A stretch of DNA of 60,297 nt, taken from contig JABMQS010000002.1 of NCBI GenBank assembly GCA_013202525.1, positions 1-60,297 on the forward strand. Direction: 5' to 3'. A program made the translations under genes and the position numbers. This document shows positions 11,902-38,575 of this stretch, one piece after another; the first letter of the stretch is position 1, and every line of letters starts with the position of its first letter. Source of the DNA: Candidatus Omnitrophota bacterium. Its GTDB lineage: Bacteria > Omnitrophota > Gorgyraeia > JABMRG01. Below the pieces are notes generated by a model. That model had not been told where the DNA came from. It saw only the letters and a list, made by a program, of their open reading frames with translations, and did no database searches.

Positions 11902-12900
11902 ATGGATACAGAGAAGAAGAAAGATAACAGTCCAAAAGGTTTTTCCGATGTATGGATGTTTGTAGCATGCGCCTCCTGCGTTTGTTTCTTTGTTAATTGG
12001 CTCAGGGTAAGCAGGGGCATGTCGATACCGGGCTTTATCGCTCCTTTTGTTATCGGCTTACTGGCCTTTTTCTTCCAGGCCTTTATGCATCAAAGGCCGC
12101 TTATCGAGCTCTATTCAAAAAGCCATCCTTATCGCAAACTGAAACCCTACGGTGTCATCAGCGCATTTTTATTATTTGAGTTTCTTCTTATGTGGGGCCT
12201 TTATACAAAGCAGATCGTTACAACAGGCACAGGCCTTTGCCTTATAAATCTTGTGTTTATCGGATTGATAGTCTACTACCATGCCTTTGTCAGAATGAAG
12301 GTAAGTTTGAGATTTCTGTTTTTGGCAATATTTATACCAATACTGGCGGGCGGCGCGGCACTGGGCCTGGGCAGCTATTTTATGATATTGAAATTTGTTG
12401 TGCCGGCACAGAAGGTAGGCAATGCGGTCTTCTTTAACACTCTCTACTGGATATTGTTCAGCATATTCCTGCAGATGATATGCGAGGAGCCCGCGTTCAG
12501 GGGATATCTCATGCAGAGACTGCTTGAGAAAGGTGAGATCTTTGCCATCGCGTTATCCGCTTCTCTGTTTGCCGCCTGGCGTATCTCTTTTATCATGTTT
12601 ACCGAGCTCAGCATGTCTTTTGTGCTTGTCATGTTCTGCGCGAACCTTATAATGGGCGCCATATTCGCGCTTCTATTTATAAAGTCAAGAAACCTCCTTG
12701 TGGCCATACTCTGTCATGGCCTTATAAACGGTTTCTTCAACAGTCTCTTTGCCCACAGCGCCAATCCGGGCATGAGGGAGTATGTCGAGTTTCTCATCCC
12801 GCAGGGCCAGGGCTATCTTGTCGTGCTTTGGTCTGGCTGTCTCTTTGTGGGTTTGATCCTGCTTACAATTATACCGCGCAAAAAATTTCATGCCTACTAA
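11902..12900 (+). CDS. CPBP-family intramembrane glutamic endopeptidase (CAAX protease-like)
   Basis: This is a polytopic membrane protein with the EEPAFRGY motif, a later FAAWR motif and a HGLINGF motif. Confidence 0.75.
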   Translation: MDTEKKKDNSPKGFSDVWMFVACASCVCFFVNWLRVSRGMSIPGFIAPFVIGLLAFFFQAFMHQRPLIELYSKSHPYRKLKPYGVISAFLLFEFLLMWGLYTKQIVTTGTGLCLINLVFIGLIVYYHAFVRMKVSLRFLFLAIFIPILAGGAALGLGSYFMILKFVVPAQKVGNAVFFNTLYWILFSIFLQMICEEPAFRGYLMQRLLEKGEIFAIALSASLFAAWRISFIMFTELSMSFVLVMFCANLIMGAIFALLFIKSRNLLVAILCHGLINGFFNSLFAHSANPGMREYVEFLIPQGQGYLVVLWSGCLFVGLILLTIIPRKKFHAY

Positions 12901-19511: not shown

Positions 19512-19920
19512 GGGGGCGATTTGGGTTCGACTTAATGTATGGTGGCAATGAGGAGCATGCCGAGGTTGGTCAGTTGGCCTCGTTAAAAGCTGACCAAAAA
19601 CTAAGTGCAGAAAAACTACGCACAAAGGTCATGGAAGTCGTTCCTATTAACACAGGAATGGTTTCTGTGATGCCGTTAGCCGCCTAAAAGCGCGGCTACC
19701 GTCACCTGGCCCTGCCTGCAGGGCCGGATGTGACGCCATTAGCAGGCTAGTCCTGGATCCTTGGCTTTTGGGGTGTAGGATCAAATCTTAAAAAGCTGCG
19801 CCTTCTGACGATCCCTCCTGTGGGAGCCCGGAAGGCTAAGACCAAAACGCAGGATAAGCATGTAGCTTGCCTCTTGCTGTGTACTTAAGGACGAGGGTTC
19901 GATTCCCTCCGCCTCCACCA
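19512..19920 (+). ncRNA. ssrA: tmRNA (SsrA)
   Basis: The 5' end GGGGGCGATTTGGGTTCGAC pairs with the 3' end CGCCTCCACCA, including the G3:U wobble. The T-arm is GAGGGTTCGATTCCCTC. An internal tag ORF ends in ...PLAA-TAA (19685-19687). The gene begins 6 nt after smpB. Confidence 0.9.
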
Positions 19921-22340: not shown

Positions 22341-23093
22341 ATGAACCCCGTAAGAAATTTAAGACATAGCAGGGACTCAAAGATTTCTCACGGGGCAAGC
22401 CCCGTAAGAAATTCAGGACATAGCAGGGACTCAAAGATTTCTCACGGGGCAAGGGCAGTGATTCTTCTTTCAGGAGGCATCGATTCAGGGGCAACATTAT
22501 ATTATGCAAGGCAGAAGGGGTATAAGGTCTTCTGCCTTACCTTTGATTATGGCCAAAGACACAACAGGGAGATAGATTCAGCGCGCAGACTGGCAGAGGC
22601 ATGCGGCGCAGACTGGCGCCTGTTAAAGATCAGCCTGCCCTGGAAGGGAAGCGCCCTGCTTGAGAAAGGAAGAAGGCTGCCGAAGGGTAAGCTCGCGCGA
22701 AAAGATATACCGAGTACTTATGTGCCTGGCCGCAATATCATATTTTTGAGTTATGCGGTCTCGTATGCAGAGGCCATCAAGGCAGAGGCAGTATTTATAG
22801 GCGCCAATCAGATCGACTACAGCGGGTATCCGGACTGCAGGGATTCTTTCCTGAGGGCGTTCGGCGCTGCTGTTAAAAGAGGTACAAAGAAGGGCGTAAG
22901 CGGCCGCGGCATAAGAATAAAGGCGCCATTTATCAATAAGACCAAGTCCCAGATCGTTGCGGCTGCGCTTAAAATGAAGGTACCGATTGAAACCACATGG
23001 TCCTGTTACAGAGGCGGCAGACGCCCGTGCGGCGTTTGTGATTCCTGCCTGATCCGCACAAGGGCCTTTAAGGAGGCAGGTATTTATGGCTAG
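22341..23093 (+). CDS. queC: 7-cyano-7-deazaguanine synthase; the start codon is uncertain
   Basis: The conserved core starts at AVILLSGGIDS, and the C-terminal zinc cluster is CYRGG..PCGVCDSC. The first 39 codons from ATG 22341 are the translated tandem repeat. The in-frame GTG at 22458 would give a canonical-length QueC. Confidence 0.9.
   Translation: MNPVRNLRHSRDSKISHGASPVRNSGHSRDSKISHGARAVILLSGGIDSGATLYYARQKGYKVFCLTFDYGQRHNREIDSARRLAEACGADWRLLKISLPWKGSALLEKGRRLPKGKLARKDIPSTYVPGRNIIFLSYAVSYAEAIKAEAVFIGANQIDYSGYPDCRDSFLRAFGAAVKRGTKKGVSGRGIRIKAPFINKTKSQIVAAALKMKVPIETTWSCYRGGRRPCGVCDSCLIRTRAFKEAGIYG
22346..22453. repeat. Tandem 2 x 54-nt hairpin repeat at the queD/queC junction
   Basis: Copies at 22346-22399 and 22400-22453 differ at 2 positions. 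Each can form a 13-bp stem with one mismatch (CCCCGTAAGAAAT / ATTTCTCACGGGG) around a 24-nt loop. Confidence 0.9.
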
Positions 23094-30157: not shown

Positions 30158-30243
30158 GACAGGTTCGTGCTTGGAAACAGGACAGGTTCCCGAACAAATT
30201 GGTAAACGTCTCCAACTGTTAACTACAACTGCTAAAGAATGAG
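30158..30243. repeat. Repeat family A, short form (copy A3), inside the 5' leader
   Basis: GACAGGTTCGTGCTTGGAAACAGGACAGGTTCCCGAACAAATTGGTAAACGTCTCCAACTGTTAACTA...CTGCTAAAGAATGA is present. About 47 nt are near-identical to 35344-35390. It is the reverse complement of parts of 6534-6644 and 38584-38726. Confidence 0.85.
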
Positions 30244-30254
30244 GAGAGTAGGGT

Positions 30255-33200
30255 ATGTTTAAGGTAACTGCGGTTATTACAGCATTAATATTTAGTATAA
30301 CAAGCGTACCAGGGCCGAGCTACATATATAATGATGCGCTTCGAGACATGGCCACTGGAAATGCTGATGGCGCAGGCTCATCAGTGGAAAGAGCGCTGAA
30401 GTCTTCTTCGCAGGGTGATCCCAAGGAGACGGTGCTCCATGACTGGCATGTAACACAAGGTGCAGCCATGGCTGCCTTTGGTGGTTGGGATATGCCGAGC
30501 GTATATACAGACGCCAGAGAAGAGAACCTTAATACTAGAAGGGGTGTCTCTATATTTGATGAGAGCCACATGGGCTTGATAGAGATAACAGGTCCTGATG
30601 CTGCCAGGTTTCTTGCTCACATTTCATCTCCCAATGTTGACCCAGACGGGAGCATAAGAGAATTTAATGACGGGGATGTGCAGTACAGGTTCTTATTTAA
30701 TGAGAGAGGAATACAGATAGATGATATACAGGTTGTAAGGATCGCAGAAGACCATTTCAGGTTAGTGGTAAATGCCTGCAACACAGATAAGGTGGAGCGC
30801 TGGTTAGATGATAACTCCAGTGGTTATGACTGCAGTATTAGAGACCTGCGTTATGTACCCGATCAGACTGAGCAGCGTGTAATATTGGCTGTTCAGGGCA
30901 CCAATGGGGCACAGGATATATTGCAGCTGCTTACTCCTCATGATCTAGACAGCATCGACTATTTTCAGGCTGCTGAAATAGATCTCTTTATCGGCAGGGT
31001 AATACCGCGCGGGCCTGGCGGAAAGCCAAAGTATACGGGAAAGGTCGTGAAATGTCTTGTGCAGAGAACAGGTTATACTGGCGAGGATGGTTTTGAGATA
31101 CACCTTCACCCTGATGATGTGCTGCTTTTCTGGGAAAGTGTTATCAAGCTTGGCGCAAGGCCCGCAGCCCTTCAGGCAAGGGATACATTAAGGGGAGAGG
31201 CAGGCCTTCCTCTTAATGGCCATGAGTGGACAGACGATGATGATGGCCCCATGCCGTGGGAATATAAGTATGCCTTTACAGTAGATACCAGCGAGTCTGC
31301 ATCCTATATAGGGGCAGAGGCGCTACGGAAGAAAAGAGCTAAATCGACAAAGGCATTGGTGGGCATAAGGTTGTCTGATAGGCAGTCGAGGCTGCATGAA
31401 GGGCATAAAGTATTTAATGATGAAGGTAAAGAGATAGGCTATGTAACGAGCGGCTTTTTTTCACCGACACTCGACAGGGGCATAGGCCTGGTCTATATAG
31501 ATAAAGAATTTGCAAATATAGGTACAAAGTTGATAGTGCGGCCTTCACCTGACAGGATGCTTTTTGCAAAGGCTGTAAGGACACCTTTTATAAGCCATAT
31601 CATATCCAGTAGGGGCAGGGATCCAAGAGAGAATGCGCCAAATTATATACCAGGCGGCGATGAGGAAAGGGCACAGAAGCTCGCTCTTGTTAAGAAGAGA
31701 TTTGGTGCTGATTCAATAGAGGCTCTTTTCGGAGACCTGCAGCAGTATTTCCATCAAGGTGAATTGGACCTGCCTGAGCCGGCAGTTAATAACAGGGCGC
31801 TCTTTAGATTGATGTACGGATTGAGCCTTGAAAACAATACCGACCTCTTATCCTTTCGCGGAGCCGGCTGCTACGCTGAAGAGCCTTCTGATCTTGTCGA
31901 TTATCTGATGACGTTAGATGGTTTCGTAACATCATATACCCCGTACCAGCCTGAAGTAAGCCAGGGAACCTTAAGGCTCATGTTTGCCTATCAGTCTCTT
32001 ATGGCAGATCTGCTTAATATGGATGTTGTAAATGCCTCTGTCTATGAAGGGGCAAATGCCCTGGTAGAAGGCGCACGCATGGCAACCAGTATAACCGAAA
32101 AAGACAGGATAGTCGTAGTCGGCGCTATAAATCCCCGCCACAAAGAAGTCCTTGATGAATATGCAAAAAATCTTGGCATCAATGTCTCATATGTTGATCC
32201 TATTGCAGAGACAGGCAGGGTTGATTTAAGAGGGCTAAAGGATGAGATAGATAATGAGACCGCTTCTGTAATCGTGCAGCAGCCAAACTTCCTCGGCATC
32301 GTCGAGGAAGAGATAGACAATATAGCAGATATCGCAAGGGAAAATGGGGCGCTTCTTCATATACACTCAAATGACCCGATGCAATTTGTGTTTCTAAAGA
32401 CCCCTGGAAATCATGGAGCTGATATTGCTACAGCAGAAGCCCAGGCCTTTGTAGGTGAACATTTTTTTGGAGGCACTAATCTCGGTATCGTTGCATGCAA
32501 AAGGAAGCATTTAAGATATATACCAGGACGCTTAGCTGGCCAGACCGTTGATCAAGATGGCAATGATGCCTTTGCCCTGGCATTGGCCCGCAGAGAACAG
32601 TTTGCTGCCCGAAAAAGGGCCACATCCAATATATGCACAAATGTTGCCTTACACGCGGCCCGCGCCGCTGTCTACATGCTCGATAAAGGAACCCAGGGGC
32701 TGAGGTCATCATTAATTCGTTCCGGTGGACATGCGGTATGGTTTGCAGGGCAGGTGCACGATGGCAAGATACCGGGTTTCAGGCTTTTCAGTAATGCCCC
32801 GTATGCACGTGAGATAGTAGTTGAAACAACTATCTCTGCTAAGGAATTACAGCAAGAACTGCTAAAGAGAGGTATCGATGCAGGCACTGATGTAAAAAGC
32901 TACGACTCTTTTAAAAGCAGAAGACATCTCATACAGTTCTCATTCACAACTGCACATACCAGCACCGATAGAAAGGCATTGGCAGATGCCCTTAGGGACA
33001 TATCAAAGGAGCGCAGCCTCAAAGATCTTGATGAATCGCATGCCCAAATGACAGGTGGATCACGCGATCAATTTCGGCAGGATGCACTCAATATACCTGA
33101 GATAGAAGAACCAGATCTAAGAGCGGCATTAAAGGTTTTAAGCGAGCAGAATTTTTGCGTTGAGAAACACCCATATCCTCTCGGCTCCTGCACAATGAAA

Positions 33201-35252
33201 AAGACCCCTAAGGTTAGTTTAAAAGCAGCAAGCGAACGCGGGTTTGCCAGAGTCCATCCCCATGCATTGCCTGAGACAGCTCAAGCGACACTTCAGATTC
33301 ATCATGAGCTTGGTGAATATCTTAAGGAGATAACAGGCATGGACGCAGTATCTCTTAATCCTTCGGCAGGCGCACATGGTGAGCTTGTGGGCATTACAGC
33401 AATATTCAGGTATTTTGAAGACAAGGGTGAGGCCAAACGCAACGTGATTATTACCACAGACTCTTCTCATGGTACAAACCCTGCCAGCGCTGCTATACTC
33501 GAGGCAGAGATAGTACAGGTCAAGACAGATATGGCAACAGGACGCCTGGACATGGCTTCACTTCGGCAAGTCCTTGCTGATCCTAAATACAAAGGCAGGG
33601 TTGCGGCTATAATGCTGACAGAACCCAATACACTTGGGGTGTTTGAGGATTTGGAAGAGGCGGCCCGTTTAGTTCATGAGGAAGGCGGTATGGTCTACAT
33701 GGACGGCGCAAATCTAAATGCCATAGCAGGATGGATCATGCCAGCGGATTTAGGCGTAGATGTCATGCATTTTAATCTCCATAAGACATTCAGCGCGCCG
33801 CACGGCGGAGGCGGACCCGGCGCAGGCCCGGTCGGTGTAAGCGATAGGCGTTACAAGCTATCGGAATTTTTGCCAAACCCAGAGGTGGTTTTGAGAGATG
33901 GCGAATATGCTCTTGCGGATAGAGCACACGGTACAGACATGGGAACCTTTCTTGGCAATACAGCGGTTTCATTGATAGCATATGCTTATATAAGAAGACT
34001 TGGCCCGGAAGGCCTAAAGCAGGCTATCGGGGATGCTCTATTGAATGCAAATTATCTCAAGGCGCGCCTTATGGATGAGTTTGATATGGTCCCTGCTACC
34101 GGTGAGCTTGCGATGCATGAGTTTGTCATATCTTTGGCAAAAATAAAGAAAGAGACAGGATGCACTGCCGATGATTTTAGCAAGGTATTGGAGAACTTTG
34201 GGATACATCCGCCTACTATATATTTTCCTCTGATAGTATTAGAGGCGATGATGTTTGAGCCGACAGAGAGTTTGAGCATAGAAGACCTTGACCGTATAGC
34301 AGACGCGATGATAGCTATAAAGAATCTCGCTTATGCTAATCCGAAGGTGGTAAAAGGCGCACCGTACAGTTCTCCTGAGGCCCTTCGTCACGGACTTACA
34401 GCTGCTCTTATGCAGACACGCCAGTCAGATTATAAGGATGCCAAGGCGCTGTATGCTCACCTGCAGCCAACACCAGTAAGCAGGGTTATTATGGATCCTG
34501 TAAATGACCTTCAGGGTGTTGTTTTAAAGCAAAATAATGTGGCTGCCATTCTTGGTATCAGTGATGAAAGGCTCGTTAGGGAGGCACCTACTGCACCTGA
34601 AACCCCCGAAGAAGAGCTTGAGTACAGAGATCCTGCTGAGGGCTGGAATTCAGATCCAGGGCAGTCTATACCAGTATTTTTCAATCCTAAATATGAGGAG
34701 TTTGACGATTGGTACAGGATAGTGGAAGGCCCTGATGGCAAAAGAATCGCTGTTATAGGTATTCTTAAAAGGAGTTCTGATCTTCTATCCATTGCTGAAA
34801 TAATTTTCGAAAAAAATGTAGGAGAAGAAGTCAATAGAGGTGAGGTATGCTTAGAGTTTGAAGGGGATAAAGCAGATATTGAATTTGAATCTCCTGTAAG
34901 CGGCAAGGTTATAGCAAGGAATGAAGCTGCTGTAGAATATCTGGGTAAAGATAAGGCAGAGCAAGGCACGGATGACCCCTATGGCAGAGGCTGGCTGTTT
35001 GCTATTGAGCTTACCGAGGAGCCAGAGCCTGGAATAGATGTTTTAACTGCTGCTGCGTATGACGAGGCTTTAGAAAAGGCATCCATGCCCGGCGAGGTAA
35101 AATCTGGCCTTGAGATAGCCACAGATACAATAAAGTACCACGCATTTAATGCGGCAAGATACGGCCCTCTAGGCAGTGGCGGGCGCAAAGCCGCCAGCCC
35201 CGGCACTCCTGCACCAGCAGCCGTATCTAAAGCAATCTTATCAGGAGCATAG
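30255..35252 (+). CDS. Fused glycine cleavage system polyprotein: GcvT-GcvPA-GcvPB-GcvH in one 1665-aa ORF with a hydrophobic N-terminal segment
   Basis: The T domain spans ~aa 58-447 (LHDWH..GA.M..FGGW.MP, FDESHMG). PA spans ~aa 462-915 (NYIPGG..., SYTPYQPEVSQGTL). PB spans ~aa 965-1400 (GSCTMK, HGTNPASA, NLHKTF with K1177, PHGGGGPGAGPVGV). H spans ~aa 1476-1612 (EFEGDKADIEFESPVSGKV with K1539, DPYGRGWLF, LTAAAYDEALEK). A GAGGAGAG Shine-Dalgarno lies 6 nt before the ATG. Confidence 0.85.
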   Translation: MFKVTAVITALIFSITSVPGPSYIYNDALRDMATGNADGAGSSVERALKSSSQGDPKETVLHDWHVTQGAAMAAFGGWDMPSVYTDAREENLNTRRGVSIFDESHMGLIEITGPDAARFLAHISSPNVDPDGSIREFNDGDVQYRFLFNERGIQIDDIQVVRIAEDHFRLVVNACNTDKVERWLDDNSSGYDCSIRDLRYVPDQTEQRVILAVQGTNGAQDILQLLTPHDLDSIDYFQAAEIDLFIGRVIPRGPGGKPKYTGKVVKCLVQRTGYTGEDGFEIHLHPDDVLLFWESVIKLGARPAALQARDTLRGEAGLPLNGHEWTDDDDGPMPWEYKYAFTVDTSESASYIGAEALRKKRAKSTKALVGIRLSDRQSRLHEGHKVFNDEGKEIGYVTSGFFSPTLDRGIGLVYIDKEFANIGTKLIVRPSPDRMLFAKAVRTPFISHIISSRGRDPRENAPNYIPGGDEERAQKLALVKKRFGADSIEALFGDLQQYFHQGELDLPEPAVNNRALFRLMYGLSLENNTDLLSFRGAGCYAEEPSDLVDYLMTLDGFVTSYTPYQPEVSQGTLRLMFAYQSLMADLLNMDVVNASVYEGANALVEGARMATSITEKDRIVVVGAINPRHKEVLDEYAKNLGINVSYVDPIAETGRVDLRGLKDEIDNETASVIVQQPNFLGIVEEEIDNIADIARENGALLHIHSNDPMQFVFLKTPGNHGADIATAEAQAFVGEHFFGGTNLGIVACKRKHLRYIPGRLAGQTVDQDGNDAFALALARREQFAARKRATSNICTNVALHAARAAVYMLDKGTQGLRSSLIRSGGHAVWFAGQVHDGKIPGFRLFSNAPYAREIVVETTISAKELQQELLKRGIDAGTDVKSYDSFKSRRHLIQFSFTTAHTSTDRKALADALRDISKERSLKDLDESHAQMTGGSRDQFRQDALNIPEIEEPDLRAALKVLSEQNFCVEKHPYPLGSCTMKKTPKVSLKAASERGFARVHPHALPETAQATLQIHHELGEYLKEITGMDAVSLNPSAGAHGELVGITAIFRYFEDKGEAKRNVIITTDSSHGTNPASAAILEAEIVQVKTDMATGRLDMASLRQVLADPKYKGRVAAIMLTEPNTLGVFEDLEEAARLVHEEGGMVYMDGANLNAIAGWIMPADLGVDVMHFNLHKTFSAPHGGGGPGAGPVGVSDRRYKLSEFLPNPEVVLRDGEYALADRAHGTDMGTFLGNTAVSLIAYAYIRRLGPEGLKQAIGDALLNANYLKARLMDEFDMVPATGELAMHEFVISLAKIKKETGCTADDFSKVLENFGIHPPTIYFPLIVLEAMMFEPTESLSIEDLDRIADAMIAIKNLAYANPKVVKGAPYSSPEALRHGLTAALMQTRQSDYKDAKALYAHLQPTPVSRVIMDPVNDLQGVVLKQNNVAAILGISDERLVREAPTAPETPEEELEYRDPAEGWNSDPGQSIPVFFNPKYEEFDDWYRIVEGPDGKRIAVIGILKRSSDLLSIAEIIFEKNVGEEVNRGEVCLEFEGDKADIEFESPVSGKVIARNEAAVEYLGKDKAEQGTDDPYGRGWLFAIELTEEPEPGIDVLTAAAYDEALEKASMPGEVKSGLEIATDTIKYHAFNAARYGPLGSGGRKAASPGTPAPAAVSKAILSGA

Positions 35253-35401: not shown

Positions 35402-38400
35402 ATGATGAGAAAGATAATTGTATACTTAATAACGCTTATTTTTGCGCTTAACACCACATGGACAGGGCATGCTGTAGAGCATGCCCTGAGTCATCGCGGG
35501 ACTCTGCGCCCACTTGCTACGGCAAGGAGCCCTTTGGCATTTTTAGACAGGACTATGAGCGAGGCAGCAGCAGCGGCTATATCTGCTGAAACCGGGATAA
35601 GTCAGGCCGTTATACTAAGGCTAACTGAGATAAAACTCCTCTACATTGATGAGATGGGCGGCATATCTGATGAAGATACAAAGCTACTTAAAGATGTGTC
35701 AGAAGAGTGGCCGGATGAGCTTATCAAGCTCATAAGAGTCAGGGATTATCTTGGGTTCAGTAAGACCAGACTGAGAAGATGTAAAGCAGCCTTGGGCATA
35801 GTCTATGCAGGAATAGAAGATCGAATTGCATTGGTCAAGAAAGATGTTGCACATGACCTGTTGCTAAGGGAGCTTCTTTACAGGGCGCATATGTACACAC
35901 GGAAAGAAGTTGCCGATTTGTTTGGTTATAAGCAGGCTGTGGAGCGACTTATTAACAATGGCCAGCTTCCCAAATTTGAGGATGAGATCAACAGGGGGTA
36001 CTTCAAGAGAGTGGTGGATAGACTGGTGAGTGAAAGAAGAGATGGTGTGCGCCAGCTTATTCCAAGCGGGTGGCTATTGGCCAGGGATATATTGGCAAGG
36101 ATCAATTCGAAATTTCCAGACGTTACCAAGGTACAGATGGAAGGTGTCTTAGGAGAGACGGAAGCCAGCCTTAAGGTAGGGGTGAAGGACCCGTATATAA
36201 GAAAGACACGGTGCGGGTATCATCCATCAGTAGCAGAGCATTGCATGGATGTATTTGAAGTAAGGGATATAGAGACCTCAGGCCCCGCTGGTCTTGCCAG
36301 GGTAAAAGAAGATGTTTATTATAAAATATCGTGGGCTGCAAAGGCACTGGGCATCAATCACATTACATTGTTACAGCGATATCACAGCGGAAAGCTGATA
36401 GGTAAAGGAGGCGGAAGGGCTGGAGCAACCATACGCATAAAGGGCAGTGAGATACAGAGGCTTCGTGGCATAAACCTGGAGCAAGCAAGATTACTAAAGG
36501 CCGGAGAGCTTCATACTGCCTATGGGTTGTGCAATGCCTATAGGATAAATAAGGATACAGAAATGGCTATCTATAAGATGCCTATAAGGAGGGTAAGGCC
36601 GGGATATGCACTGCTCAGATTTGGGAATAGGTGGATTCCTATTTTTGAGGACTACCTGGATCTTATTCATATACCAGAAAGTTCTGTCGCTCTATTGCAG
36701 GGAGTAGAGAGGTTTATTTTGCCGACAGAGATAGCAGAGTATACAGGGCATGAATACGCAGAGATCTGCAGGCTTGCAGAAACCAGGGGCATACTTTTGA
36801 GAGAAGGCAGGAGTGAACCTGAGATCAGAGATTATACTCTGGGCGCTCTATTTATGGAAGACGAAAACGGGAGAGACCCAGCCTCAGAGAACTTCAGCCA
36901 GTTTTGCGATAGCGAGAAAGAGGCCTTTTTAAAGAGATATCCATTTATGGCAGAGGTATTGACCAAAGCTGTAAAACCCGATCTTTATAGGACAATACCG
37001 CTCTCCCTGACAGGCCTTGACAGCAATATCGAGAGATTGCGCATGCTCAGTATCTATGAGGAGGCCATAAGAAGAGGAGAAGTGGGCATGTCGCATACTA
37101 TCTCCTTATATATGAGTCAGCTGGCAATGGTAAGGGAGCTTATCCGTTTTGGTTATGTGACCAGGGCTGATTTACGCGATATAGAACATCAGCTCGCCCT
37201 GGATCGCATTGAGGAGATTTTTGCGGACATATATGAGTTGATGAAGGGGGATATCAGTCGAGTCAAACCAAGAGACCTGTATACCTTGTGTGAACGCTAT
37301 TACTTTACACCGCAACGGCTTGATGCTTTAGTCCATAAGGCGTCCCGGGTAGATAGAGTACTCGAGGCTCAAGAAGCATATGCGGGTTTTAGGGTCTCTA
37401 ACGGTAATGTGGTGATAATAGCAGAAGACGGGGCAACGACTGAAATACCACTTAACGGGAATGGGACTGCAGGAAACAATGCATCTGCGGACAGGCCCGC
37501 TTCAGACGCCAGTGTAACGATAAAGTCAGGCACCGCTGCCCCCCTGAAAACAGCGAGTGCAGGGGATGTTGCAGAACAGATCTGGGGCGGCAAGCTCGAA
37601 CCTGTCTGGGCTGAGAATATAGATATATCTGTGTTTGTTAAACTGCTCGAGCTCTGCCAGTGTGATGTGCTAGACCTTCAATCTGGCAAGTTTAAAGGAA
37701 ATCAGTTATATACACAGATAGAAGACAGACTTGCCCAGATATTTGTGGTCTCTATTGTCAATGCAGCCAGAAGAGATGAGAGATTTGCGCACCTTGACCT
37801 TGATCTTATCGAAAGAATATTATGCGCAAGGGGCCTTTGGGGCACACGCCCTGATGAGATGGCTGACTATTTGAATGGATTGGCGCAGAGCGCGGCTGAG
37901 GCCGACGAAAATGCCAGCGCCGCTCTTTCAGAGATGAGCGAATTTATTCGATTTGCCTTGAGCATAAAGTATCAAGCCAAGATCTACACGCAGAGGAATC
38001 GGGAGAGGTATAACCATATAGGTATTCCGAATATCCTTAATTCTATCTTGTGCTCTACCTTTTACAACTTAAGATTGGATACCAATGGTTTTCCAGGGGC
38101 ATTCGATGGGATCGATAGTGTGGTAGATGATGTAAAGGTCGCCGATGAGATTGTAGAAAGTGTCAGTAATCTTTGGAAGAAGGTTGATAGAGGCGGTGTG
38201 GTGGATAATGCCAGCAAAAAGTTCGGATATAAACGCCTGTTGGCGCTCTGGCCGTATTATTTTGAGATTGTCGAGGCCCAGATGAGGGGGTTGCGTGGAC
38301 AAAGAAGCATTATGGCCGCGAAATATTTAGATAGCCATTTTAGTTATAATCCTACCCTAGCGGAAGAGCCGCTGCATCGGGAAGGAAGATTAGAGCATTT

Positions 38401-38575
38401 CAATCTTGAACCCCTGTTGCAATGTGACTGCCTGCTTGCATTTGGCTGGGGCCCGGTATATGCCGGGGCTTATGAAGCAACCCCCCGCAAGGCTTTAGCT
38501 GCAAGAGACATGCCCAGCACCCCCTTATCATGTGGTTCCCCAACAACCCATCGCGCCATCCTATCCGCTGCGTAA
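35402..38575 (+). CDS. Large hypothetical protein (1057 aa) with a hydrophobic N-terminus and several degenerate HTH-like (excisionase/MerR-type) segments
   Basis: This is a long uninterrupted ORF. The N-terminus MMRKIIVYLITLIFALNTTWTGHA looks like a signal peptide or anchor. Recurring segments have the form xTxxExAxxLGhxxxxhxRhxxxGxL (for example YTRKEVADLFGYKQAVERLINNGQLP and YKISWAAKALGINHITLLQRYHSGKL). I recognise no catalytic family. Confidence 0.5.
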   Translation: MMRKIIVYLITLIFALNTTWTGHAVEHALSHRGTLRPLATARSPLAFLDRTMSEAAAAAISAETGISQAVILRLTEIKLLYIDEMGGISDEDTKLLKDVSEEWPDELIKLIRVRDYLGFSKTRLRRCKAALGIVYAGIEDRIALVKKDVAHDLLLRELLYRAHMYTRKEVADLFGYKQAVERLINNGQLPKFEDEINRGYFKRVVDRLVSERRDGVRQLIPSGWLLARDILARINSKFPDVTKVQMEGVLGETEASLKVGVKDPYIRKTRCGYHPSVAEHCMDVFEVRDIETSGPAGLARVKEDVYYKISWAAKALGINHITLLQRYHSGKLIGKGGGRAGATIRIKGSEIQRLRGINLEQARLLKAGELHTAYGLCNAYRINKDTEMAIYKMPIRRVRPGYALLRFGNRWIPIFEDYLDLIHIPESSVALLQGVERFILPTEIAEYTGHEYAEICRLAETRGILLREGRSEPEIRDYTLGALFMEDENGRDPASENFSQFCDSEKEAFLKRYPFMAEVLTKAVKPDLYRTIPLSLTGLDSNIERLRMLSIYEEAIRRGEVGMSHTISLYMSQLAMVRELIRFGYVTRADLRDIEHQLALDRIEEIFADIYELMKGDISRVKPRDLYTLCERYYFTPQRLDALVHKASRVDRVLEAQEAYAGFRVSNGNVVIIAEDGATTEIPLNGNGTAGNNASADRPASDASVTIKSGTAAPLKTASAGDVAEQIWGGKLEPVWAENIDISVFVKLLELCQCDVLDLQSGKFKGNQLYTQIEDRLAQIFVVSIVNAARRDERFAHLDLDLIERILCARGLWGTRPDEMADYLNGLAQSAAEADENASAALSEMSEFIRFALSIKYQAKIYTQRNRERYNHIGIPNILNSILCSTFYNLRLDTNGFPGAFDGIDSVVDDVKVADEIVESVSNLWKKVDRGGVVDNASKKFGYKRLLALWPYYFEIVEAQMRGLRGQRSIMAAKYLDSHFSYNPTLAEEPLHREGRLEHFNLEPLLQCDCLLAFGWGPVYAGAYEATPRKALAARDMPSTPLSCGSPTTHRAILSAA

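Follow-up and report, generated by a model that had tools for sequence, protein, structure and literature searches.

Gene and modules

The stretch of DNA analysed here (the window) is a 60,297-nucleotide (nt) contig, JABMQS010000002.1, from Candidatus Omnitrophota, and contains a gene in which proteins of the glycine cleavage system (GCS) are joined end to end. The open reading frame (ORF) at 30255..35252 on the forward strand encodes 1665 amino acids (aa), with no internal stop over 4995 nt. Pfam and NCBIfam profiles identified four complete modules in series along the chain, the aminomethyltransferase GcvT, the two P-protein subunits GcvPA and GcvPB, and the lipoyl carrier GcvH (Table 1). 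A first-pass annotation, made from the letters alone, had described one uninterrupted ORF with four modules, and both the ORF check and the profile searches uphold this, the GCV_T, P and GCV_H families all being matched in the chain. It had also called the protein a whole glycine cleavage system. This holds as far as T, PA, PB and H go; the chain unites T, P and H, out of the four proteins of glycine cleavage, and has no L-protein. The same protein is already in NCBI as a metagenome-assembled genome (MAG) protein of 'Candidatus Omnitrophica', labelled only 'GcvPB'.

The GcvT module matches GCV_T over aa 61-328 (204 bits) and GCV_T_C over aa 366-445 (64 bits), carries the motifs FDESHMG (aa 101), IDD (D156/D157) and GYTGEDGFE (aa 273), and aligns end-to-end with 1YX2 and 1WOO (E = 1e-51). 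GcvPA scores above its NCBIfam equivalog cutoff (454 vs 364 bits for NF001696, profile positions 3-445 of 447) and aligns with residues 10-436 of 438 of 1WYT_A (E = 2.5e-67). GcvPB is likewise above its cutoff (586 vs 441 bits for NF003346) and matches 1WYT_B, the Thermus P-protein beta subunit, with E = 5e-104. The NLHKTF context of K1177, the pyridoxal phosphate (PLP) lysine, is identical in 1WYT_B, and H1176-K1177 are invariant in our alignment of six fused proteins. The tether that follows PB is acidic and includes a short helix that is conserved, AAILGISDERLV, as well as the motif EYRDPAEGW; in the AlphaFold2 (AF2) model its predicted local distance difference test score (pLDDT) is 33-57 over aa ~1390-1465, between two folded domains. 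GcvH matches Pfam GCV_H over aa 1494-1607 (36 bits against a gathering threshold (GA) of 22) and forms a beta-rich domain in the AF2 model. It aligns end-to-end with 2KA7, 1ZKO and 3A7A over ~115-125 residues (E ~1e-10), and the module also matches the lipoyl domains of pyruvate dehydrogenase (PDH) E2. K1539 aligns with the lipoyl-lysine of E. coli (ESVKAASD motif) and T. maritima GcvH and, together with the H signature DP..GWL, is invariant in the six-protein alignment.

Most of the boundaries proposed in the first pass were accurate. The spans for GcvT (~aa 58-447) and GcvPA (~aa 462-915) agree with the NCBIfam spans of 57-447 and 463-916, the residue and nucleotide coordinates of K1177 and K1539 were exact, and the lysine proposed for lipoylation is in register with solved GcvH chains. 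The start of GcvPB, given as aa 965, lies at about aa 918-938, with the profile match running from 918, and the supposed PA-PB linker is therefore mostly PB's own N-terminal region. Linkers of 10-75 aa had been described; this fits the T-PA junction at ~15 aa and falls short for the PB-H segment at ~100 aa.

Table 1. Position of the fused gene's features and of the adjoining gene in the window
Feature	Position	Strand	Content or basis
Shine-Dalgarno GAGGAG	30241..30246	+	8 nt before ATG at 30255; direct reading of sequence
Leader, aa 1-56	30255..30422	+	n-region (K3), h-region aa 2-18, ALRD, KSSSQG
GcvT aminomethyltransferase, aa 57-447	30423..31595	+	Pfam GCV_T + GCV_T_C; NCBIfam GcvT
T-PA junction, aa 448-462 (~15 aa)	31596..31640	+	peptide kept across six fused proteins
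GcvPA (P-protein subunit 1), aa 463-916	31641..33002	+	NCBIfam NF001696
GcvPB (P-protein subunit 2), aa 918-1375	33006..34379	+	NCBIfam NF003346; PLP lysine K1177 at nt 33783-33785
PB-to-H tether, aa 1376-1478 (~100 aa)	34380..34688	+	alignment, composition, AF2 pLDDT
GcvH lipoyl carrier, aa 1479-1608	34689..35078	+	Pfam GCV_H + Biotin_lipoyl; K1539 at nt 34869-34871
C-terminal tail, aa 1609-1665, and stop	35079..35252	+	KAASPG (nt 35187-35204), ...AILSGA (nt 35232-35249)
1057-aa orphan gene (NCBI HQ558_00360)	35402..38575	+	same leader …GHAVEHALSHRGTLRPLAT (…TLRPLAT), KTASAG at aa 716, tail …AILSAA

Recurrence and rarity of the fusion

At least six independent assemblies, one of them a single-cell genome, encode the same T-PA-PB-H order with homologous junction peptides; the independent sources are the single-amplified genome (SAG) AM-311-C11, MAGs, and Logan, ENA and JGI contigs. 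In the alignment of six fused proteins the junction peptides AKVV.TPFINHI.SDR...FYIPG, ILGIGE.ELV and EYEDP.EGW are conserved. Conservation of order and junction peptides at 43-52% identity points to one ancestral fusion under selection, from which the T-PA-PB-H family would descend, and excludes chimeric assembly. The window contig is a metagenome assembly, and we considered whether separate gcvT, PA, PB and H genes had been wrongly joined by assembly or gene calling, or whether the gene is a pseudogene. No point in support of this was found; the recurrence in independent assemblies, the even GC content of the gene (46-47.5% throughout), the 4995 nt free of stops and the conserved catalytic residues all speak against it, and the artefact is effectively refuted. 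On these comparisons the 1665-aa chain is the product of a true fused gene in Candidatus Omnitrophota, in the order T-P(alpha)-P(beta)-H, and the first-pass view that it is no trivial sequencing artefact stands.

To measure rarity we used a profile of the fusion-specific segment, comprising the PB C-terminus, the tether and H. In a sample of one genome per species (185,579 species) the full profile was matched at no fewer than three loci, two in Omnitrophota and one on the contig L005. An exhaustive HMMER search covered 1.84 billion cluster representatives, and among its best 150 matches are eight that span the full profile, three of them close clusters and five distant proteins. A homologue search with the tether, H and tail (aa 1376-1665) gave no match at E <= 1e-3 among 8000 word-sharing proteins. 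The first pass knew of no described T-PA-PB-H single chain, and our full-text literature searches found no paper on a fused GCS or on a GCS with a tethered H. Far from being common and already characterised, the fusion is real, rare and recurrent, and we found no paper describing it.

The L005 contig (CAYGBL010000056.1, 5396 bp) carries a PA-PB-H chain that runs on into NHL repeats and is truncated where the contig ends. Its bin is 'Actinomycetota', but with 43% identity to the Omnitrophota family it is probably mis-binned.

Relatives and partner modules

Five further proteins (P0002-P0006), 43-52% identical to the window protein, share its T-PA-PB-H order and add other modules. P0002 has a weak CN-hydrolase-like match in a C-terminal extension, P0003, from the single-cell genome, a glycosyltransferase, P0005 an alanine dehydrogenase (AlaDH) and P0006 PutA, while P0004, which has lost its N-terminus at a contig edge, carries a dihydrolipoyl-dehydrogenase-like module. 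NHL repeats and a response regulator are further modules found among the relatives. Fused L-protein also occurs in more distant chains, namely P0127 (L-T-PA-PB-H, 2070 aa, leaderless), P0143 and P0276 (leader-X-L-T-PA-PB-H-X, ~2800 aa) and P0275. The L modules of P0004, P0127 and P0143 match dihydrolipoyl dehydrogenase (TIGR01350) best, with 375-384 bits, slightly below the 408.8 cutoff and far above their scores for other flavoprotein reductases. Three long chains (P0183, P0190 and P0227) have T-PA-PB without H, and P0007 and P0008 (~1335 aa) are T-P chains that lack both H and a leader.

The fused L-like modules of P0004 (aa ~1350-1909) and P0127 (aa 1-560) contain an extra Pyr_redox_dim fragment with HPTLPE before the FAD/NAD domains, and a second dimerisation domain at the usual C-terminal place. 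This odd arrangement is possibly a permuted one. At its locus (L084 1-7852) the leaderless P0127 gene adjoins PcrB, two UbiA prenyltransferases and a geranylgeranyl-reductase-like gene; the contig is bacterium-like, with a sigma-70 gene, and the PcrB, UbiA and reductase neighbours are ether-lipid-type genes. In the synteny comparison of the loci L001, L002, L003, L085 and L086 no conserved neighbours were found beside the fused gene, and none of lpd, lplA, lipA or lipB adjoins it there.

Leader and tail

The N-terminal leader is the sole hydrophobic segment of the window protein, which has no internal transmembrane (TM) helices. Its hydrophobic h-region of 15-17 aa follows a short n-region, its ALRD (L29-R30) is the counterpart of an LR(P/A) motif in the family, and the delimiter-like KSSSQG lies at aa 49-54 (nt 30399-30416). 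The leader is kept in every full-length Omnitrophota-type relative and is conserved in P0002, P0003, P0005, P0006, P0143, P0183, P0190 and P0227, and in more than ten proteins overall. In the relatives the n-region carries a charge of +3 to +5, the h-region has 15-17 residues, often with AXA-like sites, and LR(P/A) comes 5-15 residues later; small-residue sites read by hand include ...ASA/N, ...AFA/F and ...GHA/V. By hand scoring no other leader in the set is as weak as that of the window protein, whose n-region has a charge of only +1 and whose h-region is followed by PGPS. Two other signal types were rejected, a class III (prepilin-type) signal for the lack of G at -1 and E at +5, and a Tat signal for the lack of a twin-arginine motif.

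The tail of the window protein, ...AILSGA, is of a type shared with the next gene and with relatives that end in ...IDSAA, IDSSA, IDTAA or IKAAA. Among 66 ORFs of Omnitrophota loci the leader with LR(P/A) co-occurs with the tail (7/8 vs 3/58, Fisher p ~1e-6), a figure that is descriptive, since both patterns were defined post hoc. An NCBIfam scan of leader and tail matched no curated model. The features are displayed together at the locus L003 (205-20409), where four consecutive large genes (1369, 996, 1849 and 2491 aa, with gaps of 4-48 nt) all have a signal-like leader, LR(P/A) and a short hydrophobic Ala-rich tail. In order they encode a HAD-like protein, galactokinase with deacetylase, the GCS fusion, and AlaDH with epimerase, PfkB and receiver, and two of the four leaders are near-identical (MFKKFTAILVSWAFL). 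For the 1057-aa gene that follows the fusion in the window (Table 1) the Pfam and NCBIfam scans gave only a sub-threshold HTH_17 match, and a homologue search found the protein itself alone.

The hydrophobic N-terminus noted in the first pass is present, but it is not peculiar to this protein and marks a class of Omnitrophota multi-module proteins. Judged by its distribution, the combination of leader, LR(P/A), delimiters and Ala-rich tail appears to be a class-wide overlay on Omnitrophota multi-enzyme proteins.

The transfer-messenger RNA (tmRNA) gene at 19512-19920 (+) encodes a 26-residue tag, AEKLRTKVMEVVPINTGMVSVMPLAA, which ends in …PLAA, similar to the …ILSAA and …ILSGA tails. The window also encodes, at 11902-12900 (+), an intramembrane protease of the CPBP type (Rce1-like), which was weighed as a possible tail processor; a CAAX-type tail, considered given this protease, was set aside, as the tails have no Cys.

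Such a leader raised the question of whether the enzyme is exported. A cleavable Sec leader could allow the cassette to work in the periplasm, on the surface, or touching a prey or host cell, as one cargo of an Omnitrophota-specific sorting system. The spread of the leader over more than ten proteins, with positive n-regions, short h-regions, AXA-like sites and no other TM segments, counts in favour of export, as does its co-occurrence with the tail. A 2026 preprint likewise reports signal peptides or TM helices for 94% of Omnitrophota proteins of at least 10 thousand amino acids (kAA) (bioRxiv 10.64898/2026.06.07.730766). On the other side, the window's own leader is the weakest example, with Pro directly after the h-region. 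Glycine cleavage also requires tetrahydrofolate (THF), NAD+ (via L), PLP and ATP- or acyl carrier protein (ACP)-dependent lipoylation, all of them cytoplasmic. Moreover, leaderless fused relatives exist (P0127, P0007 and P0008), and the fusion is therefore independent of export and leader. We consider an exported or delivered enzyme unlikely.

Delimiter motifs

Short peptides recur at the module borders of these proteins. The motif K-[AST]-[AS]-S-[ASQ]-G directly precedes the T module of the window protein and that of P0005 and P0006, and the same delimiter is found at the borders of unrelated enzymes, with KASSAG three times in P0003, between H and AlaDH in P0005 and between PutA and T in P0006. 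In P0183 (3020 aa; leader-T-PA-PB-…-receiver) a 12-residue delimiter, (V/I)DLGMS(T/A)DGGEE, occurs five or six times between modules (aa 136, 1573, 1912, 2263, 2510 and ~2640), and from its placement it would play the role that KASSAG has in the window's lineage. KASSAG copies within one gene differ in their synonymous codons, and selection therefore acts on the peptide; a role as DNA-level repeats or recombination sites was rejected on the same variation. The delimiters flank the GCS cassette, and none interrupts T-PA-PB(-H) in any family member. The window protein's own copies are degenerate (KSSSQG and KAASPG), so the pattern is best regarded as an observation on the family.

It is possible that these peptides mark a polyprotein, a precursor cut at the leader, the delimiters and maybe the junctions, which would leave the cell with T, P and H as single proteins or with the GCS cassette set free. 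Their recurrence in P0003, P0005, P0006 and P0183, and as KTASAG in the window's next gene, would fit such processing, as would the conservation of the peptide across differing codons. A ...SSA/G site, which looks like the natural ...SAA ends, would also have the small -1 and -3 residues that signal-peptidase-type cleavage calls for. West-Roberts et al. proposed that the giant proteins of Omnitrophota are processed by proteolysis (bioRxiv 10.1101/2023.11.21.568195). Against this, with no delimiter between T, PA, PB and H in any member, at most the whole cassette would be freed; the motif is degenerate in the window protein and absent from P0002 and its neighbours, and no dedicated protease was identified. 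A processed polyprotein is therefore improbable in our estimation, to about the same degree as export.

A broader and similarly doubtful proposal would combine both ideas in an undescribed sorting and processing system specific to Omnitrophota, with the Sec-type leader and LR(P/A), lineage-specific delimiters (KASSAG; VDLGMSTDGGEE) as processing or recognition sites between enzyme cassettes, and the Ala-rich tail, the GCS being cargo. The tail ...ILSAA resembles the end of the organism's tmRNA tag, ...PLAA, and cofactor-dependent enzymes would be placed outside the cytoplasmic membrane or delivered to host or prey. If true, this grammar would underlie the phylum's giant multi-enzyme proteins. 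The giants of the 2026 preprint might be strings of leader-cargo-tail units, but the mid-size relatives do not support this, having no internal leader-like hydrophobic segments. Three readings of localisation and processing stay alive, namely a membrane-associated protein with a cytoplasmic enzyme, an exported or delivered enzyme, and a processed polyprotein.

Proposed mechanism

We favour, with a probability of roughly 0.6, the reading that the chain is active as both glycine decarboxylase and aminomethyltransferase, that a flexible tether of ~100 residues carries H, and that L acts in trans. The PA-PB part would act as a single-chain P-protein and dimerise, and the short (~15 aa) conserved junction would keep T near it. 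On its flexible acidic tether of ~100 residues, H could bring the lipoyl-lysine to the P site for decarboxylation and loading of the aminomethyl group, and then to the T site for transfer to tetrahydrofolate and release of NH3, either in cis or across the dimer. The dihydrolipoyl-H would be re-oxidised by L-protein in trans here, L being fused in some relatives, and a ligase from another part of the genome would carry out lipoylation. The most conservative reading of the leader would be that it associates the enzyme with the membrane. The anatomy of the chain suits a tethered lipoyl carrier serving P and then T, and it is from the anatomy of the linkers that we infer this 'assembly-line' mechanism. 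In relatives the partners, fused or adjacent, are PutA, alanine dehydrogenase, glutamate dehydrogenase (GDH) and L, which would fit a role in the oxidative catabolism of amino acids.

Several points weigh against an active tethered enzyme. GcvT falls just short of its NCBIfam cutoffs (278 vs 300 bits for NF001567 and 227 vs 236 for TIGR00528), and the divergent GcvH is well under its own (51 vs 117 for NF002270 and 36 vs 116 for TIGR00527). The AF2 model of the whole chain, built on an alignment of 6 sequences, is moderate (mean pLDDT 65). H-protein in the classical GCS is a free carrier and also in excess, and a 1:1 tethered H departs from this. The conserved Sec-signal-like leader is a further difficulty, as an exported enzyme would lose access to NAD+, to THF and to the machinery for lipoylation. 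Finally, the ORF scans of the 60-kb contig, a 179-aa ORF by the fumarase gene excepted, gave no match to Lpd, LplA, LipA or LipB domains. With the same exception this agrees with the first-pass statement that the window holds no L-protein or lipoate ligase/synthase gene, and it is because lpd, lplA, lipA and lipB are not on the contig that L is placed in trans.

The low scores of T and H also bear on whether the folds have been kept for another purpose, such as a different reaction, aminomethyl- or lipoyl-dependent, or a role without catalysis. Sarcosine oxidase, DMSP demethylase and TMAO demethylase also use the GcvT fold, and the leader is unusual. However, PA and PB exceed the GcvPA and GcvPB equivalog cutoffs, GcvT models lie more than 100 bits ahead of every paralogue family on the T module (these score <=157 bits), the catalytic lysines are invariant and L-protein-like modules are fused in relatives. 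We regard neofunctionalisation as very unlikely, and less probable than export or polyprotein processing.

The GCS is the textbook case of a multi-enzyme system linked just by a freely diffusing lipoyl carrier, and natural T-P-H and L-T-P-H chains would mean that evolution also made a tethered-carrier GCS. Channelling of the aminomethyl intermediate, and the effects of tethering H on rate and reversibility, become testable. In the reductive glycine pathway it is a practical difficulty to keep the four GCS parts in balance, and the chain may offer a ready scaffold for engineering that pathway. A secretion-type leader on an enzyme dependent on NAD, THF and lipoate sharpens the puzzle of exported-looking 'metabolic' multi-enzyme proteins in Omnitrophota, for which the leader motif, delimiters and tail provide concrete, testable sequence features.

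Other features of the window

A long same-strand envelope/glycan cluster occupies 39643-60084 (+). It includes two PMT_2 GT-C enzymes, one YfhO-like protein, five radical-SAM proteins (one B12-binding, one SPASM), two DegT aminotransferases, a GT2, an LPG_synthase_TM protein and several large membrane ORFs without a Pfam match. The QueC ORF has a duplicated peptide at its start (22341-22455, +; …RNLRHSRDSKISHGA / RNSGHSRDSKISHGA), upstream of the Pfam match, which begins at aa 38; the 5' region probably contains a short direct repeat of the DNA here that is not part of the coding sequence.

Comparison with known systems

The enzymes are known and their chemistry is conventional; what is undescribed is their covalent arrangement, which recurs in a phylum that is itself little known. 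The four folds are those of the classical GCS, in which GcvT, GcvP (or GcvPA and GcvPB), GcvH and Lpd are separate (for example Thermus thermophilus 1WYT and the E. coli T-H complex 3A8I), and the likeness extends to a two-subunit-type P-protein, an identical NLHKTF and a lipoyl-lysine in register. Unlike that system, the window chain joins T, PA, PB and H covalently at 1:1:1:1, leaves L unfused, and adds the ~100-aa H tether, a Sec-type leader and a C-terminal tail. The PA-PB part has the same alpha-then-beta order as single-chain GcvP (~950-1000 aa; Synechocystis 4LGL, human 6I33) and matches TIGR00461 over aa 481-1396 as well as 4LGL and 6I33. In contrast to single-chain GcvP it scores as the split type (508 bits for gcvP against a cutoff of 859), with T upstream and H downstream.

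Swinging carriers are familiar from 2-oxoacid dehydrogenases, whose E2 cores bear lipoyl domains, and from single-chain pyruvate carboxylase, which has a biotin carrier at its C-terminus. By analogy, the window chain would likewise use a lipoyl- or biotinyl-type carrier on a flexible linker to serve two active sites, although the chemistry and the partners differ.

Within the phylum, there is a likeness to the Omnitrophota proteins of at least 10 kAA, including 'multi-enzyme metabolic clusters', which the 2026 preprint reads as periplasmic or extracellular (bioRxiv 10.64898/2026.06.07.730766), and to the giant genes surveyed in bioRxiv 10.1101/2023.11.21.568195; both surveys deal with proteins of at least 10 kAA. 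These place several unrelated 'cytoplasmic-type' enzymes behind a signal peptide, as the window's relatives do. The clusters have at least 10,000 aa and many distinct Pfams, whereas the window chain has 1665 aa and a single pathway cassette, and it is related in kind to them but outside the class as defined. The word 'glycine' is absent from the 2026 preprint and 'glycine cleavage' from the 2023 one, and the leader, LR(P/A), delimiter and tail features were not found in the sections consulted.

Fusion of GCS parts is tolerated elsewhere. We observed more than 100 fusions of GcvT with serine hydroxymethyltransferase (SHMT) (P0009-P0120, ~1000-1250 aa), those with a named source coming mostly from Chloroflexota/Anaerolineae. 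In these, and in P0007 and P0008, T is likewise joined to a metabolic neighbour, at 28-36% identity to the window protein and covering 17-26% of it (T-SHMT) or 78% (P0007/P0008). Unlike the window chain, the GcvT-SHMT proteins lack P and H, and P0007 and P0008 lack H and the leader.

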